Shown here in pieces: positions 45,964-57,153 of a DNA stretch of 64,000 nt. Position numbers and translations under genes: made by a program. The notes beneath the pieces were generated by a model, which did no database searches, was not told the DNA's origin, and was given only the letters and a program-made list of their open reading frames with translations. Numbering within the stretch: the stretch's first letter is position 1; the number at the start of each line of letters is the position of its first letter. Location: NCBI GenBank assembly GCA_965205265.1, contig CBDBGH010000003.1:1408001-1472000 (forward strand), read 5' to 3'. This DNA comes from Alphaproteobacteria bacterium (GTDB taxonomy: Bacteria; Pseudomonadota; Alphaproteobacteria; Bin95).

Positions 45964-47625
45964 ATGTCATCCCCTTCCAATACGATCAGCGGCCGCAGCG
46001 CCTTCCTTGCCGTGCTCAAGGACGAAGGCGTCACGCATCTCTTCGGCAATCCGGGCACGACGGAGTTACCGATCATGCACGCGCTGACGGAGCAGACCGA
46101 CCTCGGCTATGTGCTGGGACTGCAGGAGTCGGTGGTCGTCGCCATGGCCGACGGCTATGCGCGCGCGTCCGGCAAGCTGGCGGCCTGCAACGTTCATGTC
46201 GCGCCGGGATTGGGGAACGCCATCGGCGCGCTCTACACCGCCTCGCAAAGCGGCTCGCCGATCATCGTGACCGCCGGCCAGCAGGAGCAGGGCCACGGGC
46301 TGACGGAACCGCTCCTCTATGCCCCGCTCACCCCGATTGCCGAGCCGGTGGTCAAATGGGCGGTGGAAGTCTCCAGAATCGAGGATCTGCCCCGCATCTT
46401 GCGCCGCGCCGCCAAGGTTGCGACGACCCCGCCGACGGGGCCGGTGTTCATCTCCCTGCCCGGAGACATCCTGAACCGCCACGAGGCCATTGATCTCGGC
46501 CGGGCCACCCGGGTCGACGCCCGCGCCCGCCCTTCGGACGAGGCGCTGGCGGCGATGGCCGACCGGATCGCCGCCGCTGCAAATCCGGTCATCCTCGCCG
46601 GCCATGAGACGGCCACCGGCGGCGCGCTCGATGCCGCCGCCCGGTTCGCCGCATTGCTGGGCGCGCCCGTTTACCAGCAAAGCGTGCCCCAGGGCGCGCA
46701 TTTTCCCTCGGAGCATCCCTGCTTCATGGGGGCGCTCACGCGCAGTCAGCCGCAGGTTCGCCGGACGCTGGCGCCCTACGACCTGATCGTCAGCCTCGGA
46801 GCCGACTTCCTGCGCATGTCGGTCTGGAGTGAAACGGACCCGCTGCCCGGGCATATGTCGGTCATCCAGATCGGCCTTCGGGACTGGGAACTCGCCAAGA
46901 ACTATCCCGCCGAGATCGCCGCGCTGAGCGATGTAAGGGAGACCCTTGCCGCCCTGAATCCGCTGCTGGAGGACAGGCTGGGCGCCAGCCGGCAGCAGCG
47001 TGTCGCCGCGCTTGCCGAGAGCAATTGGACCGCGAACCGGCGCAACGCGGCGGACGCCCTGGCGGAGGTACCGGAAGAGTCCGGGCCCATCCCGCCGGCC
47101 TGGCTCTGCAGGTGCCTGGCCGAGGAACTGCCCGAAGACGGCATCGTCGTCGATGAGGGCATCACCACCGGCGCGCGCCTTCTGGACTTCCTGCCGTTCC
47201 GGGATGCGAACGGGTATTTCGGCAATGTCTCGGGCGGCATCGGATGGGGCATTGCGGCGGCGGTCGGCGTGCAGATCGCGCAGCCCGCGCGGCGCACGGT
47301 GGCGCTTATCGGCGACGGCAGCGCCATGTATTCGATCCAGGCGCTCTGGACCGCCGTCAATGCCCGGCTGCCGGTCGTTTTCGTCATCGCCAACAATGGC
47401 GGCTACCGCATTCTGAAGGACAGGATGAAGGCGTTTCACGACAATGACGCGCCGATAGGAATGGATTTTCGCGATCCGCCCATCGATGCGACACGACTTG
47501 CGGAAGGCTTCGGCATGGCCGCCTTGCGGGCCGAAACGCCGGCCGCCTTCCGCAAGGCATACCGGGATGCGCTCGCAGGCTCGGGGCCCGTCCTGATCGA
47601 GGCGATGGTCAGCGCCGGCGGGTGA
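45964..47625 (+). CDS. TPP-dependent enzyme, benzoylformate decarboxylase-like
   Basis: FGNPGTTELP, AMADGYA, GDGSAMY...ANNGGY. Confidence 0.9.
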   Translation: MSSPSNTISGRSAFLAVLKDEGVTHLFGNPGTTELPIMHALTEQTDLGYVLGLQESVVVAMADGYARASGKLAACNVHVAPGLGNAIGALYTASQSGSPIIVTAGQQEQGHGLTEPLLYAPLTPIAEPVVKWAVEVSRIEDLPRILRRAAKVATTPPTGPVFISLPGDILNRHEAIDLGRATRVDARARPSDEALAAMADRIAAAANPVILAGHETATGGALDAAARFAALLGAPVYQQSVPQGAHFPSEHPCFMGALTRSQPQVRRTLAPYDLIVSLGADFLRMSVWSETDPLPGHMSVIQIGLRDWELAKNYPAEIAALSDVRETLAALNPLLEDRLGASRQQRVAALAESNWTANRRNAADALAEVPEESGPIPPAWLCRCLAEELPEDGIVVDEGITTGARLLDFLPFRDANGYFGNVSGGIGWGIAAAVGVQIAQPARRTVALIGDGSAMYSIQALWTAVNARLPVVFVIANNGGYRILKDRMKAFHDNDAPIGMDFRDPPIDATRLAEGFGMAALRAETPAAFRKAYRDALAGSGPVLIEAMVSAGG

Positions 47626-49639
47626 ACACGCCGACGGCCAGCAGCAGGGCCAGCAGCAGCGTCGTGGCCGCTATGCCGTAGCCGAGCAGCCGGCCCGCAT
47701 GCTGCAGCCCGGCGAAAGCGACGATGCTGCCGGCAAGCAGGGGGCCGGCAATGCTGCCGGCGCGCTCCACCACCCGGAAGGCCGCCGTGACCGGGCCGGT
47801 GCCGAAGGCTTCGGTTTCGGACCTGAAATAAATCGGCAGCACGGCCACTTGCGGCGTCATCACGAAGGACTGGCCGAGCCCGATCAGCGCGACGCCGCAA
47901 GCCAGCAGCAAGGCGTCGGTCGTGGAAACGAACAGCAGGCAGCCCGCCGCCACCGAAATCCCGCCAACGACGATCAGCATGCCGTGGTTCTGGAACCTGT
48001 CGGCTATCAGCGCCGCCGCCTGGTTCATGACCAGCAACACCAGGAAATAGACCATCATGGTGCGCCCGATGGCCGCCCCGCCGAAATCGAGCGAATCCAG
48101 ATAGAGCGGCACGAGGAAGAACAGGAAGCCGGTGAGCACGGTCCGCGACGGCAGGGCCGAGAGCGCCATGAATGTCATGAATCCCGGACTGCCGTAAATT
48201 CCGAACCGCCTACGATGGGCCTGTGCGCCCGCTCTGGTCCCGACTCCTTCCTCCGACGACAGGAAGCCGAAGGCGATCATCATGGCCACGAAGACGATGG
48301 TTGCCCCGACGATAAAGGTGTTCTCGTATCCCAGCCGTTCGGCGAGGATGCCGCCGATTGCGGTCGCGCAGATGCTGCCGCCGCCCGTGGCCGTGACGAA
48401 CACGCCGATATTGAGCGCGCGCCGGCGTTCCGGCGCCGTTATGGCAAGCCGGACCAGAATTGCAGCGGTGACGAGGCCGAAGCCCGCCGCCGTTACGCAA
48501 CGCCACGCAATGAGTTCGACGAACCCGGTCGCGAATGCCGTCGCGATGAGGCCGACGCTCGTGGGCGCCATGCCGAGCAACAGCGTGTTGCGCGTGCCGA
48601 GGCGGCGGATCAGCGTCGGCGCAAGCGGTGTCGTGAACAGCATTGCGACCACCCAGACCGACATCGGCATGGCGATCGCGATCGAGGCGTCGATGCCGAG
48701 CGAGGGATCGTAGAGGTCGCGCACGAAGAGGGGGAAGAAGGGACGAGAGAGTTCGACGCCGAAAATGAAGAAGAACAGTGGATACTGCACGTCTCCGGCG
48801 CGCAGCACCTGCACCGGCCGGTAGGCGCCCTCCTCGGCGAATACCCGCCCTTCCCGAAGCCTTTCGACGGCGCCGCCGGCGGTCACCAATGCGCGGAAAC
48901 GCCGGTTGATCTCGGTATTGATGCTATTCATGGCGTCGATGACCCGGGCTAGGTCGTCGCGTCCGCGCGAGGCGATGGAGGCCGAGAAGTCCCCTTCGCT
49001 GACCGCATGCATCAACCGCCTCATCAGGCCGATGGACCGGGCGACCGTAAGCGACAGCACCAGCAGGGTGAGTTCGAGAACGATCAGGATGGCGACGCAC
49101 AGCGAGATGCCGATATCGGTGAAGATGCCGGCCATGGTGTTGCGGACGTAACGCCGGTCTATTCCGACCATTGCGTGCCCGACCTGTTCGCCGCCATGAA
49201 GCAGGGGATGCGCGATATTGTAGTCGGAGCCGATCGAAACGAATGCGCCGGCATTCGCGGCAAAGGGATTGGAACTGGTATCGACTCCCTCGCCGGCCTC
49301 CGCCGAGAACAGCACCTTGCCCTCGGCATCGGTCACGGCGAGATAGGCAACCTCGGGGTGGTCGGTCAGCAAGTCGTCCAGATAGGCGTCCACACCCCTC
49401 AGGCCTTCGACCGGGATATCGAGGCGTACTGCCGTGTTGAGATCGTTGGCAATCGACCGGGCCAGGACATGCGCTTTGCCCTTGATGACGGGCTCCAGCC
49501 TCGTCTCCACCGCGCCGAGCGCAATCCAGGCAAGGAACGCATTTGCGGCAACGAGGGCCAGCACGGCGACGAAACCGATGCGGATGCCGATGCCCGCAAG
49601 GGTCGGAGCCCGTCGGTGGCCGCCGCGGTCGGGGCTCAC
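47609..49639 (-). CDS. Periplasmic sensor + HAMP + MFS transporter fusion
   Basis: TM, about 130-aa periplasmic domain, TM, HAMP (AVSEGDFSASIASRGRDDLARV), then about 12 hydrophobic helices with RRLGTR and IADRF loops. Confidence 0.8.
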   Translation of the reverse strand: MSPDRGGHRRAPTLAGIGIRIGFVAVLALVAANAFLAWIALGAVETRLEPVIKGKAHVLARSIANDLNTAVRLDIPVEGLRGVDAYLDDLLTDHPEVAYLAVTDAEGKVLFSAEAGEGVDTSSNPFAANAGAFVSIGSDYNIAHPLLHGGEQVGHAMVGIDRRYVRNTMAGIFTDIGISLCVAILIVLELTLLVLSLTVARSIGLMRRLMHAVSEGDFSASIASRGRDDLARVIDAMNSINTEINRRFRALVTAGGAVERLREGRVFAEEGAYRPVQVLRAGDVQYPLFFFIFGVELSRPFFPLFVRDLYDPSLGIDASIAIAMPMSVWVVAMLFTTPLAPTLIRRLGTRNTLLLGMAPTSVGLIATAFATGFVELIAWRCVTAAGFGLVTAAILVRLAITAPERRRALNIGVFVTATGGGSICATAIGGILAERLGYENTFIVGATIVFVAMMIAFGFLSSEEGVGTRAGAQAHRRRFGIYGSPGFMTFMALSALPSRTVLTGFLFFLVPLYLDSLDFGGAAIGRTMMVYFLVLLVMNQAAALIADRFQNHGMLIVVGGISVAAGCLLFVSTTDALLLACGVALIGLGQSFVMTPQVAVLPIYFRSETEAFGTGPVTAAFRVVERAGSIAGPLLAGSIVAFAGLQHAGRLLGYGIAATTLLLALLLAVGVFTRRR

Positions 49640-56419: not shown

Positions 56420-57153
56420 CCGATCCGGTCCAGCCGATCGACCTCGCGGGCATCGTCGTCCATCGCGGCAAGCATTCTCGCCGCAGTATCGTGGAAGCCC
56501 GCAAGCGACGGCGGCGCACCCTCCAGGTCCGCTGCCTGGCCCTCCGCCATCGCCAGCAACGAGGCGTCGCTTCGCCTCAGCATGTCGAGAACCGGATGCA
56601 GCACCCAGCGGGCAAACAGGAAAACAAGCAGGAGGCAGACCGCGAACACGCCGGCGGCAATGCCGAAGACGGTAACGGCCGCGCGTTCGCGCAGCGGCGC
56701 ACTGTGCCGGACTTCGCTCTCCAGCAGGACACCGCCGACGACCTTGCCGAAATTATTGATAAGCGGGCTCCCGACGGTCACCGCCCGCTCATCGGTCTCG
56801 ATCCAGCGCCCGGTTCGGTCGCCGGCATCGACCGTGGTCCCGAGGTCCGTCTGGTCGGTGGAGAATACGACCCGGCCGTCCGGCCCGAAAACCAGCAGCC
56901 GGTCGATATCCGGGTCGGCCGCCTGGGTGCGGTCCAGCAATGCCGCGATTTCCGGGATGGTCTCGAGTCGAAGGCCCAAATCCGTGCGGACCGTAATCGC
57001 ATGGGCGATTTCATCGACGGTGAAGCCGAAATGCGACGCCTTAACAGTTCGGAGTTCGCGGTCGAATGTGTCGAGTGCGGCATACACGACCAGCGCGAGA
57101 GAAAGGGCAACGCCGGCCAGGAACGCCAATCCCAACTTGATCCGCAGTCTCAT
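56416..57153 (-). CDS. Two-TM membrane protein, paralog of 49636-50388
   Basis: RTDLGLRLETI, VFGPDGRVVFST, TVGSPLINNFGKVVGGVLL. Confidence 0.75.
   Translation of the reverse strand: MRLRIKLGLAFLAGVALSLALVVYAALDTFDRELRTVKASHFGFTVDEIAHAITVRTDLGLRLETIPEIAALLDRTQAADPDIDRLLVFGPDGRVVFSTDQTDLGTTVDAGDRTGRWIETDERAVTVGSPLINNFGKVVGGVLLESEVRHSAPLRERAAVTVFGIAAGVFAVCLLLVFLFARWVLHPVLDMLRRSDASLLAMAEGQAADLEGAPPSLAGFHDTAARMLAAMDDDAREVDRLDRIG

Follow-up and report, generated by a model that had tools for sequence, protein, structure and literature searches.

Solute-binding proteins (SBPs) are involved in uptake or in sensing. In the LuxP-LuxQ and TorT-TorS systems, a periplasmic binding protein acts as the co-sensor of a membrane sensor with periplasmic domains of the PAS/PDC type, and in the TRAP and TTT systems SBPs serve secondary transporters. 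Textbook accounts place PDC and HAMP domains on the input side of kinases, chemoreceptors and cyclases. A transporter fold can also take part in sensing: UhpC, a sensor of the major facilitator superfamily (MFS) type, works with UhpB. In the SLC5/STAC histidine kinases CbrA and CrbS, transporter and sensor are reported to be fused in one protein (PMC9100948). Here, these kinds of parts are described in a cluster of seven genes in a stretch of 64,000 nucleotides from an alphaproteobacterium (assembly GCA_965205265.1, contig CBDBGH010000003.1, positions 1,408,001 to 1,472,000), the whole of which is referred to as the window. The genes encode a membrane protein in which PDC and HAMP domains precede an MFS domain (the sensor-MFS protein), two small membrane proteins without an output domain (small250 and small257), an SBP of family PF04392, two ATP-grasp ligases (AG1 and AG2), and a membrane-anchored PP2C phosphatase of the SpoIIE family.

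The conserved core of this system is the SBP, one small protein and the PDC/sCache-HAMP-MFS protein; the PP2C phosphatase is a frequent partner. Each of the domains is known already, and there are precedents for SBP co-sensors, for transporter-sensor fusions and for HAMP-PP2C phosphatases. The combination for which the literature searched gave no description is a PDC-HAMP input placed before an MFS domain, together with an output-less paralogue and an orphan PF04392 SBP. A search for papers on PF04392, HAMP-MFS, Cache-MFS and SBP-dependent MFS proteins, with supplementary files (and any tables of SBP ligands in them) outside its scope, found none on this system, and in the family libraries no characterised pathway matched the cluster. 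The initial annotation of the window had taken the genes for a functionally linked, uncharacterised unit; the recurrence of the cluster across lineages, described below, and the lack of a matching pathway in these libraries and papers bear this out.

The locus resembles LuxP-LuxQ and TorT-TorS in that an orphan SBP gene adjoins the gene for a PDC-type membrane protein, with no ABC transporter, and the likeness to LuxPQ extends to three sampled genomes in which a PF04392 SBP is encoded directly upstream of an sCache_3_2-HAMP hybrid histidine kinase. It differs from them in its output, which is an MFS domain (in 98 of the 101 best long relatives) or a PP2C phosphatase, in the family of its SBP, and in a receptor, proposed here from gene adjacency, that seems to need a second, output-less paralogue. 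With CbrA/CrbS and UhpC-UhpB it has in common the combination of a secondary transporter and signalling domains in one protein or in a tightly linked system; here, however, the polarity is reversed, with the PDC-HAMP input ahead of a transporter that occupies the output position, and there is no kinase. Like the TRAP and TTT transporters, it consists of three parts without an ATPase, namely an SBP, a secondary transporter and a small accessory membrane protein, whereas its membrane part is MFS rather than DctM/TctA, its SBP is PF04392 rather than DctP/TctC, and the putative link between the two runs via PDC and HAMP domains. The phosphatase is a membrane-anchored HAMP-SpoIIE protein, as are RsbU/SpoIIE-type PP2Cs and SiaA of Pseudomonas aeruginosa, and its genome encodes STAS and RsbW-like proteins; unlike SiaA, it has no siaBCD-like partners adjacent to it, it has two periplasmic domains and two HAMP domains, and its N-terminal module is common to an MFS transporter. 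Finally, the ligases have the full three-domain ATP-grasp fold of Ddl and VanA with the ATP/Mg and catalytic positions conserved, but they differ from Ddl in score (37-51 bits against a cut-off of about 245), in sequence (about 20% identity) and in genome context.

One sensor module in four proteins

The N-terminal regions of the sensor-MFS protein and of the PP2C phosphatase align over about 250 residues with both small proteins. The aligned stretch comprises a first transmembrane segment (TM1), a long helix, a periplasmic domain, a second transmembrane segment (TM2), and a helix-connector-helix; on this alignment, the four sensor modules of the cluster are paralogues. An AlphaFold2 model of small250 (predicted local distance difference test score, pLDDT, 80.5) has the same order of elements, and between its two transmembrane segments lie the long N-terminal helix and helix-flanked central beta-sheet by which PDC/single-Cache domains are recognised. 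The top Foldseek matches of this structure were a WalK model and the sensor domains of KinD, WalK, CitA and DcuS; these sensor domains and that of Tlp3 matched at E 1e-5 to 1e-3. Small257 aligns with small250 and its orthologues. There are two sub-types of the module: a big type, which has a canonical HAMP domain and is fused to MFS or PP2C, and a small type, which has a degenerate HAMP-like tail and no output domain. The HAMP-MFS fusion and the two stand-alone periplasmic-domain proteins named in the initial annotation are present, and all of them share their module with the N-terminus of the phosphatase.

The transporter part of the sensor-MFS protein is a clear member of its superfamily (MFS_1, PF07690, 94.1 bits against a cut-off of 33.4, residues 289-615), and orthologues in Myxococcota and Burkholderiales are 32-37% identical to the whole protein. 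An alignment of 17 sensor-MFS proteins (A2) shows good conservation of the MFS domain, in which Gly, Pro and Arg are invariant at many positions, as is typical of working transporters. The NCBIfam families that match it are a mixture of symporters and efflux proteins, all far below their cut-offs, and the closest solved MFS protein by sequence is the exporter NorA, a weak match (E 2e-5), so that the direction of transport is unreadable from these matches. Glu189, within TM2, is invariant in the same alignment, and in the PP2C-fused copies of the module the equivalent position holds a gap or a non-acidic residue. Glu189 may serve the link with MFS specifically, either as a contact or in proton coupling. 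The periplasmic part is matched weakly by dCache_1 in Pfam, and sCache_3_2 is matched in 9 of 49 MFS-fusion relatives of similar length; 17 of these 49 match HAMP at E<=1e-3.

The phosphatase is the only SpoIIE-family protein of the genome and matches PF07228 over profile positions 1-191 of 192. Its sensor module (residues 1-265 approximately; transmembrane segment, PDC, transmembrane segment, HAMP) is followed by a second unit of transmembrane segment, periplasmic domain and transmembrane segment (about 300-585), a HAMP domain at 585-630 (34.6 bits), a coiled coil, and the SpoIIE domain at 775-966. The dual-HAMP architecture that had been ascribed to it is real, as the N-terminal HAMP aligns to that of the sensor-MFS protein and is detected by Pfam in a 971-residue representative (P0183). 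It is not SiaA, scoring 80.9 bits against a cut-off of 700 for the SiaA equivalog NF038263. Two single-domain STAS proteins, with genes at C3:529113 and C3:5284068, and two RsbW-like kinases (PF13581) are encoded elsewhere in the genome, and because of these a partner-switching output of the phosphatase is, by domain content, plausible. Directly 3' of one of the STAS genes, at 5284068, lies a gene for an IS605 OrfB / Cas12f-like TnpB protein (L086:2882-4162(+), G000:C3).

The SBP exceeds the Pfam cut-off for ABC_sub_bind (PF04392; see the table), has a signal peptide on direct reading of its sequence, and is the sole PF04392 match of the genome. It is not TrpX, scoring 70.6 bits against the cut-off of 390 of the equivalog NF041285. 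The window encodes no ABC permease of the PF02653 type, the closest one lying about 135 kb from the SBP gene; this agrees with the initial annotation, where the SBP was said to have no ABC partner. The solved PF04392 proteins bind L-Trp, L-Tyr and L-Phe (PMC10443332). Orthologues of the SBP with 41-46% identity occupy the same cassette in other phyla. Closer to the source genome the gene is distributed patchily: 14 of the 16 other genomes of the genus have it, all 20 genomes of two sister genera lack it, and among 24 genomes representing other families of the class it occurs in 3. Such a distribution is that of an accessory module, probably acquired by transfer. A complex prediction of the mature SBP with the periplasmic domains of the sensor-MFS protein and of small250 scored 0.31 and 0.23 against a mark of 0.32 and, having been run without controls, weighs neither for nor against an interaction.

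Conservation of the core and distribution of the ligases

A search of 1.84 billion representative proteins with a profile of 22 sensor modules matched 11,521 representative clusters at E<=1e-3, 2,280 at E<=1e-10, and 214 at E<=1e-30. Domain content was scored on the best 150 matches, of which 36 have at most 350 residues, 49 have 660-765 and 52 have more than 765. MFS_1 is found in all 49 proteins of the middle class and in 49 of the 52 longest ones, i.e., in 98 of 101 long matches; SpoIIE is found in 2 of the 52. The module is thus all but reserved for MFS transporters. When separate profile hidden Markov models were used for the two sub-types, 48 of the 52 longest proteins proved to contain a small-type module followed by a big-type module, which is the order of the corresponding genes. 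This natural fusion, with the small protein ahead of the sensor-MFS protein, is strong evidence that both act as one receptor. When homologues were sought by a word-based method, the MFS protein's sensor region retrieved almost only relatives with 56-95% identity, all of them MFS fusions, and one weak histidine-kinase match.

The same profile was applied to a phylum sample of 400 evenly drawn genomes, of which 18 gave a match at E<=1e-12. Six of these (G109, G126, G161, G337, G379 and G450) had HAMP-only matches and were left out, and the other 12 yielded 14 loci. Eight of the 14 encode a sensor-MFS protein; a PF04392 SBP is adjacent in 8/8 and a HAMP-SpoIIE PP2C in 4/8. Another five encode a hybrid histidine kinase with an sCache_3_2-HAMP N-terminus, and in three of these five a PF04392 SBP lies immediately upstream. 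This suggests a general theme, namely the docking of a PF04392 SBP on periplasmic domains of this kind, with a kinase, an MFS domain or a PP2C as the output. One locus of the sample (L088:10412-12445(+), genome G196) encodes a sensor-module protein of 677 residues, the length of a sensor-MFS protein, that has no Pfam match at E<=1e-3. Its neighbours are a small-type protein on one side and a HAMP-SpoIIE PP2C on the other, and it may have arisen from the MFS fusion by degeneration, with only a signalling role left.

An ATP-grasp ligase is encoded in none of these 14 sensor-anchored loci. When the ligase profile was run on 10 of the 12 genomes (all but G074 and G141), five had no match at E<=1e-10 anywhere in the genome, and the other five had between them three weak partial matches of 46-61 bits, probably ordinary Ddl. 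The ligase is thus dispensable in most of these systems, and the ligases of the window therefore look like a lineage-specific addition.

Approached from the ligase, the picture is complementary. From a scan with the family profile 80 loci were kept, one genome per species, and compared by tblastn with the seven window proteins. All seven genes recur in identical order in seven related alphaproteobacterial metagenome-assembled genomes (MAGs; L005-L011), with 69-97% protein identity, which is far beyond chance. An eighth locus, L012, has six of the seven genes and has the PP2C relocated to the other side, in a unit of a second sensor-MFS gene followed by the PP2C gene. The succession of sensor-MFS and PP2C is seen in the gammaproteobacterial MAG loci L012 and L061, in the latter preceded by a small-type gene. 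An operon of small protein, sensor-MFS protein, ligase and SBP, with 4-bp overlaps, is found in five Myxococcota genomes (Cystobacter, Corallococcus, Hyalangium) and also in Burkholderiales MAGs, where cross-lineage identity to the window proteins is 27-46%; in four of the five Myxococcota genomes the gene for a Porin_O_P outer-membrane porin heads the operon. In three Burkholderiales or betaproteobacterial MAG loci (L014, L022 and L024) a dCache_1 adenylate/guanylate cyclase, in one case with an additional cNMP-binding domain, stands beside the cassette. This replacement of the PP2C by a cyclase suggests that the cassette is combined with more than one kind of signalling output.

Over the 80 loci, the ligase gene is adjoined by a PF04392 SBP gene in 20, by a sensor-MFS gene in 20, and by a PP2C gene in 9. 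The linkage of the PP2C to the SBP and MFS genes, as in the original description of the cluster, therefore recurs in several lineages. The co-occurrence of the ATP-grasp genes with the same genes, which had been made a condition of the earlier proposal, is a mixed result: it holds for the 20/80 ligase loci with an SBP and fails in the 0/14 sensor-anchored ones.

AG1 and AG2 are paralogues with 41% identity. Against the NCBIfam Ddl models TIGR01205 and PRK01372 (cut-offs 245.65 and 243), AG1 scores 41.6 and 51.3 bits and AG2 39.5 and 36.7 bits, and neither is a Ddl. The possibility that one of them is the housekeeping Ddl was considered and rejected, since a separate gene of the genome, at C3:330043, encodes a canonical Ddl (273 bits); for this reason they are not taken for cell-wall enzymes. 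The AlphaFold2 model of AG2 (pLDDT 92.6) has a complete three-domain Ddl fold, and its top Foldseek matches are all Ddl, with template-modelling scores of 0.7-0.8 at about 20% identity. K121, K159, E198, K239, R278, D280, E292 and N294 are invariant in 20/20 members of the ligase family and align to the ATP-grasp core of Ddl, which is also the best match of the family profile in the Protein Data Bank (E 3e-17). With their three-domain fold, and with Lys, Glu, Asp and Asn conserved where ATP and Mg are bound, the ligases belong to the ATP-grasp superfamily. A glycine/serine-rich motif, which we take to be usual in Ddl enzymes, is absent from their N-terminal region on our reading of the family alignment. 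Judged from the model and these residues, AG1 and AG2 are probably active amide-forming enzymes. An ESM Atlas search with AG2 retrieved only generic clusters named ATP-grasp domain-containing protein.

No member of the family to which they belong is characterised, and the family is found in three different genomic contexts. For the ligase tree, near-duplicate rows of L006, L008, L010, L018, L063 and L064 were removed, and open reading frames of fewer than 250 residues or with stops were excluded. A single clade, supported at 99%, unites the proteobacterial and myxobacterial ligases; in it AG1 and AG2 fall into separate sub-clades, and the ligases of the ABC context form a neighbouring sub-clade. 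That context comprises about 20 alphaproteobacterial loci (including L043, L048, L050, L053 and L065, from Magnetospirillum, Rhodoblastus, Xanthobacter and relatives) in which the ligase gene is followed by one for an SBP_bac_6 protein, amid parts of ABC importers; a phosphonate-type SBP, a DUF2478-DUF4213-DUF364 fusion, a nitroreductase and CobW are encoded there too, and the whole is a conserved uptake or cofactor-type cluster. About 31 further ligase loci within L026-L080, mainly from Bacillota (e.g. L034 from Enterococcus caccae, L036 and L062 from Streptococcus parasanguinis), carry a phage-type integrase, a tetratricopeptide-repeat (TPR) protein of about 770 residues, and sometimes a RimK-like (R2K-type) ATP-grasp protein; this looks like a mobile-element cassette. 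The source genome itself has a third ligase paralogue, 64% identical to AG2, at G000:C3:4939921-4940931 (L004, 9913-10992). It adjoins two TcpQ-domain proteins and large open reading frames with no Pfam match, with no SBP or sensor-MFS gene in its vicinity.

A proposed mechanism and its alternatives

In the mechanism that we favour, the small protein would pair with the MFS protein's sensor part to give a pseudo-dimeric receptor. The SBP would capture a small molecule outside the cell, by analogy within PF04392 an amino acid or a close derivative, and dock on the PDC domains. The HAMP domain would relay the resulting change to the MFS domain and so gate the uptake of the same compound, in the manner of an SBP-dependent "transceptor". 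A further receptor in this genus, consisting of small257 plus the phosphatase's N-terminal module, would couple the same input to the only SpoIIE phosphatase of the genome, which would then dephosphorylate the stand-alone STAS proteins encoded elsewhere. The ligases would act in the cytoplasm on the transported compound, and trap, assimilate or neutralise it by ATP-dependent amide formation. We assign to this model as a whole, i.e., SBP docking, HAMP-gated uptake, a parallel PP2C switch, and ligases acting on the import, a probability of about 0.4.

Uptake or sensing of an external compound is favoured because SBPs serve import or sensing, because the ligase clade that neighbours AG1 and AG2 sits in ABC importer clusters, because myxobacteria add an outer-membrane porin to the operon, and because the solved PF04392 proteins bind aromatic amino acids (PMC10443332). 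The first three of these points, together with the lack of a ligase in most systems, argue for import over export. More tentatively, the PDC-HAMP-MFS protein, its small partner and the PF04392 SBP might represent a new class, next to TRAP and TTT, among the SBP-dependent secondary transporters; in it the SBP would open the translocator allosterically through a PDC-HAMP relay. The binding protein would then pass no ligand directly to the translocator, and the same relay would be reused for the PP2C.

Several observations weigh against the favoured mechanism. The HAMP domain of the sensor-MFS protein scores 22.7 bits, below the PF00672 cut-off of 25. HAMP domains are normally dimeric, and we know of no way in which one acts on a transporter. 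The mixed family matches of the MFS domain and its weak similarity to NorA leave export possible. The genes for the STAS and RsbW-like proteins are all distant from the cluster, so that the substrates of the phosphatase are guesses. The sample behind the 8/8 association of SBP and sensor-MFS genes is small, and related genomes within it are not independent. In L015 the SBP and AG1 genes are adjacent with no sensor-MFS gene nearby, a direct link between SBP and ligase that the favoured model covers only loosely.

In the initial annotation the flow was the opposite one, with the ligases as the makers of the signal: AG1 and AG2 would build a peptide or amide, the MFS protein would export it, and the SBP and PDC domains would detect it outside the cell and set the phosphatase. 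This would be an autocrine or quorum-type circuit. The pairing of an ATP-grasp enzyme with an MFS exporter is established for dipeptide antibiotics and for some siderophores; the ligase gene is translationally coupled to the sensor-MFS and SBP genes in Myxococcota, in Burkholderiales and in the window; and NorA is an exporter, with efflux families among the weak NCBIfam matches. However, the lack of a ligase in all 14 sensor-anchored loci, with five of those genomes free of any ligase match at the threshold given above and five more holding only the three weak, Ddl-like ones, means that SBP, sensor-MFS and PP2C occur without a dedicated ligase, and such a circuit is therefore not the general mechanism. 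Nor are precursor-supplying or tailoring enzymes part of the conserved core, and the clade beside AG1 and AG2 is embedded among the genes of SBP-dependent ABC importers. Synthesis of the signal by the ligases is thus a possibility for the ligase-bearing lineages that fails as a general principle, and overall we consider it unlikely. We are slightly more doubtful still of a pure sensor, in which the MFS domain would be a non-transporting signalling or scaffold domain like UhpC, the SBP and PDC domains the input, a PP2C or cyclase the output, and the ligases passengers. The PP2C genes beside 9/80 ligase-anchored and 4/8 sensor-MFS loci, the cyclase genes of the three Burkholderiales loci, and the 677-residue protein of L088, which lacks a Pfam-detected MFS domain and is encoded directly upstream of a PP2C, would all fit such a sensor. 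On the other side, within the fetched flanks no PP2C or other signalling enzyme was detected at 4 of the 8 sampled sensor-MFS loci, and the MFS domain has kept the invariant Gly, Pro and Arg residues typical of working transporters; the role of passengers does not fit the ligases, because their genes are translationally coupled to the others.

A cycle of the metallophore type, in which the ligase would make a small chelator, the MFS protein would export it and the SBP would recapture the loaded form, is very unlikely. It is suggested by the neighbouring ligase clade, which adjoins DUF364/DUF4213 ("putative heavy-metal chelation"), a CobW-type GTPase and ABC importer parts, and by the rhizoferrin exporter FslB among the weak NCBIfam matches of the MFS domain (E 1.3e-4). 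Yet no TonB-dependent receptor, ABC importer or metal regulator was identified among the seven genes or in their immediate flanks, and none of these three gene types is among the annotated conserved neighbour families. The known PF04392 ligands are aromatic amino acids (PMC10443332), and the ligase-free systems speak against a chelator just as they do against a ligase-made signal. That the seven genes are functionally unrelated neighbours is the least probable reading, effectively refuted by conservation: the three units do point in different directions, and the ligases and the PP2C are each missing from many related cassettes, but the genes recur together, translationally coupled and in part naturally fused, in Alphaproteobacteria, Betaproteobacteria, gammaproteobacterial MAGs and Myxococcota.

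Layout of the cluster and significance

The seven tightly packed genes and their domains are all present as they had been annotated (see the table). They form three transcription units: AG1, small250 and sensor-MFS on the minus strand, SBP and AG2 on the plus strand, and small257 and PP2C on the minus strand. The 4-bp overlaps reported inside each unit are confirmed by the coordinates (49636-49639, 50385-50388, 52497-52500 and 56416-56419), so that small250 is translationally coupled to both of its flanking genes and small257 to the PP2C gene. The 3' ends of AG2 and PP2C converge with an overlap of 31 bp. For small257, four of five relatives examined begin at the equivalent of 57153. The genes on either side of the cluster are metabolic (a thiamine pyrophosphate enzyme, a short-chain dehydrogenase/reductase, an AMP-binding enzyme and a CoA-transferase).

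Table. Genes and intergenic gap of the cluster, in window coordinates
Feature	Position	Strand	Description
Sensor-MFS fusion	47609-49639	(-)	676 amino acids; TM1, PDC/sCache ~44-172, TM2, HAMP ~195-250, MFS with 12 transmembrane segments ~286-676
small250, output-less sensor paralogue	49636-50388	(-)	250 amino acids; transmembrane segment, PDC, transmembrane segment, HAMP-like helix-loop-helix
AG1, ATP-grasp ligase 1	50385-51395	(-)	336 amino acids; Ddl fold, not true Ddl
Divergent intergenic gap, AG1/SBP	51396-51486		91 bp; probable divergent promoters, consensus matches only
PF04392 periplasmic SBP	51487-52500	(+)	337 amino acids; Pfam 58.7 bits (cut-off 25.9)
AG2, ATP-grasp ligase 2	52497-53525	(+)	342 amino acids; TTG start
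Membrane PP2C, SpoIIE phosphatase	53495-56419	(-)	974 amino acids; Pfam SpoIIE 178.3 bits
small257, second small sensor paralogue	56416-57153 (ATG) or to 57189 (TTG)	(-)	245 or 257 amino acids

In the divergent gap, sigma-70-like consensus matches lie at 51415-51442(+) and 51466-51438(-); they are weak evidence, and the scans as a whole were near background, yielding 3 promoter-like sites where 1.4 were expected and 12 terminator-like ones where 8.0 were expected. An Rfam search of 47000-58000 gave no match at E<=0.1. Metatranscriptome contigs from three runs of two studies, 90-99% identical to the window, span the cluster, and single contigs join AG1 with small250, SBP with AG2, and small257 with PP2C; these may reflect carry-over of DNA, and strand and level are unreadable from them. 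A GC-rich palindromic element of 27 nt occurs in nine copies in the window, where none is expected by chance, mostly as intergenic inverted pairs about 60 bp apart. One pair is located upstream of small257, with sites at 57299-57325(+) and 57358-57384(-), and others lie near 314/372, 17031, 17246/17306 and 29805/29864. The bin 57276-57642 stands out in RNA library X2, where its summed depth is 205 and that of the other bins roughly 0.3-10; this depth probably reflects many copies of a repeat like the REP (repetitive extragenic palindromic) or MITE (miniature inverted-repeat transposable element) type.

If the more tentative reading, a new transporter class with a shared PDC-HAMP relay, is true, uptake and partner-switching signalling answer one and the same periplasmic event, and a HAMP domain has a transporter as its output domain, which to our knowledge has not been described. 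The family in which a PDC-HAMP unit precedes an MFS domain is large and conserved and is nearly always found beside an orphan SBP; it would add to the outputs known for HAMP domains and to the forms that SBP-dependent transport can take. In addition, it offers a concrete, testable input for a partner-switching phosphatase, the input usually being the least understood step of such pathways, and the present genome is favourable for such a test, as it has a sole SpoIIE phosphatase. The cultivable Cystobacter fuscus and Corallococcus coralloides carry the four-gene core with the ligase gene, which makes experiments feasible.

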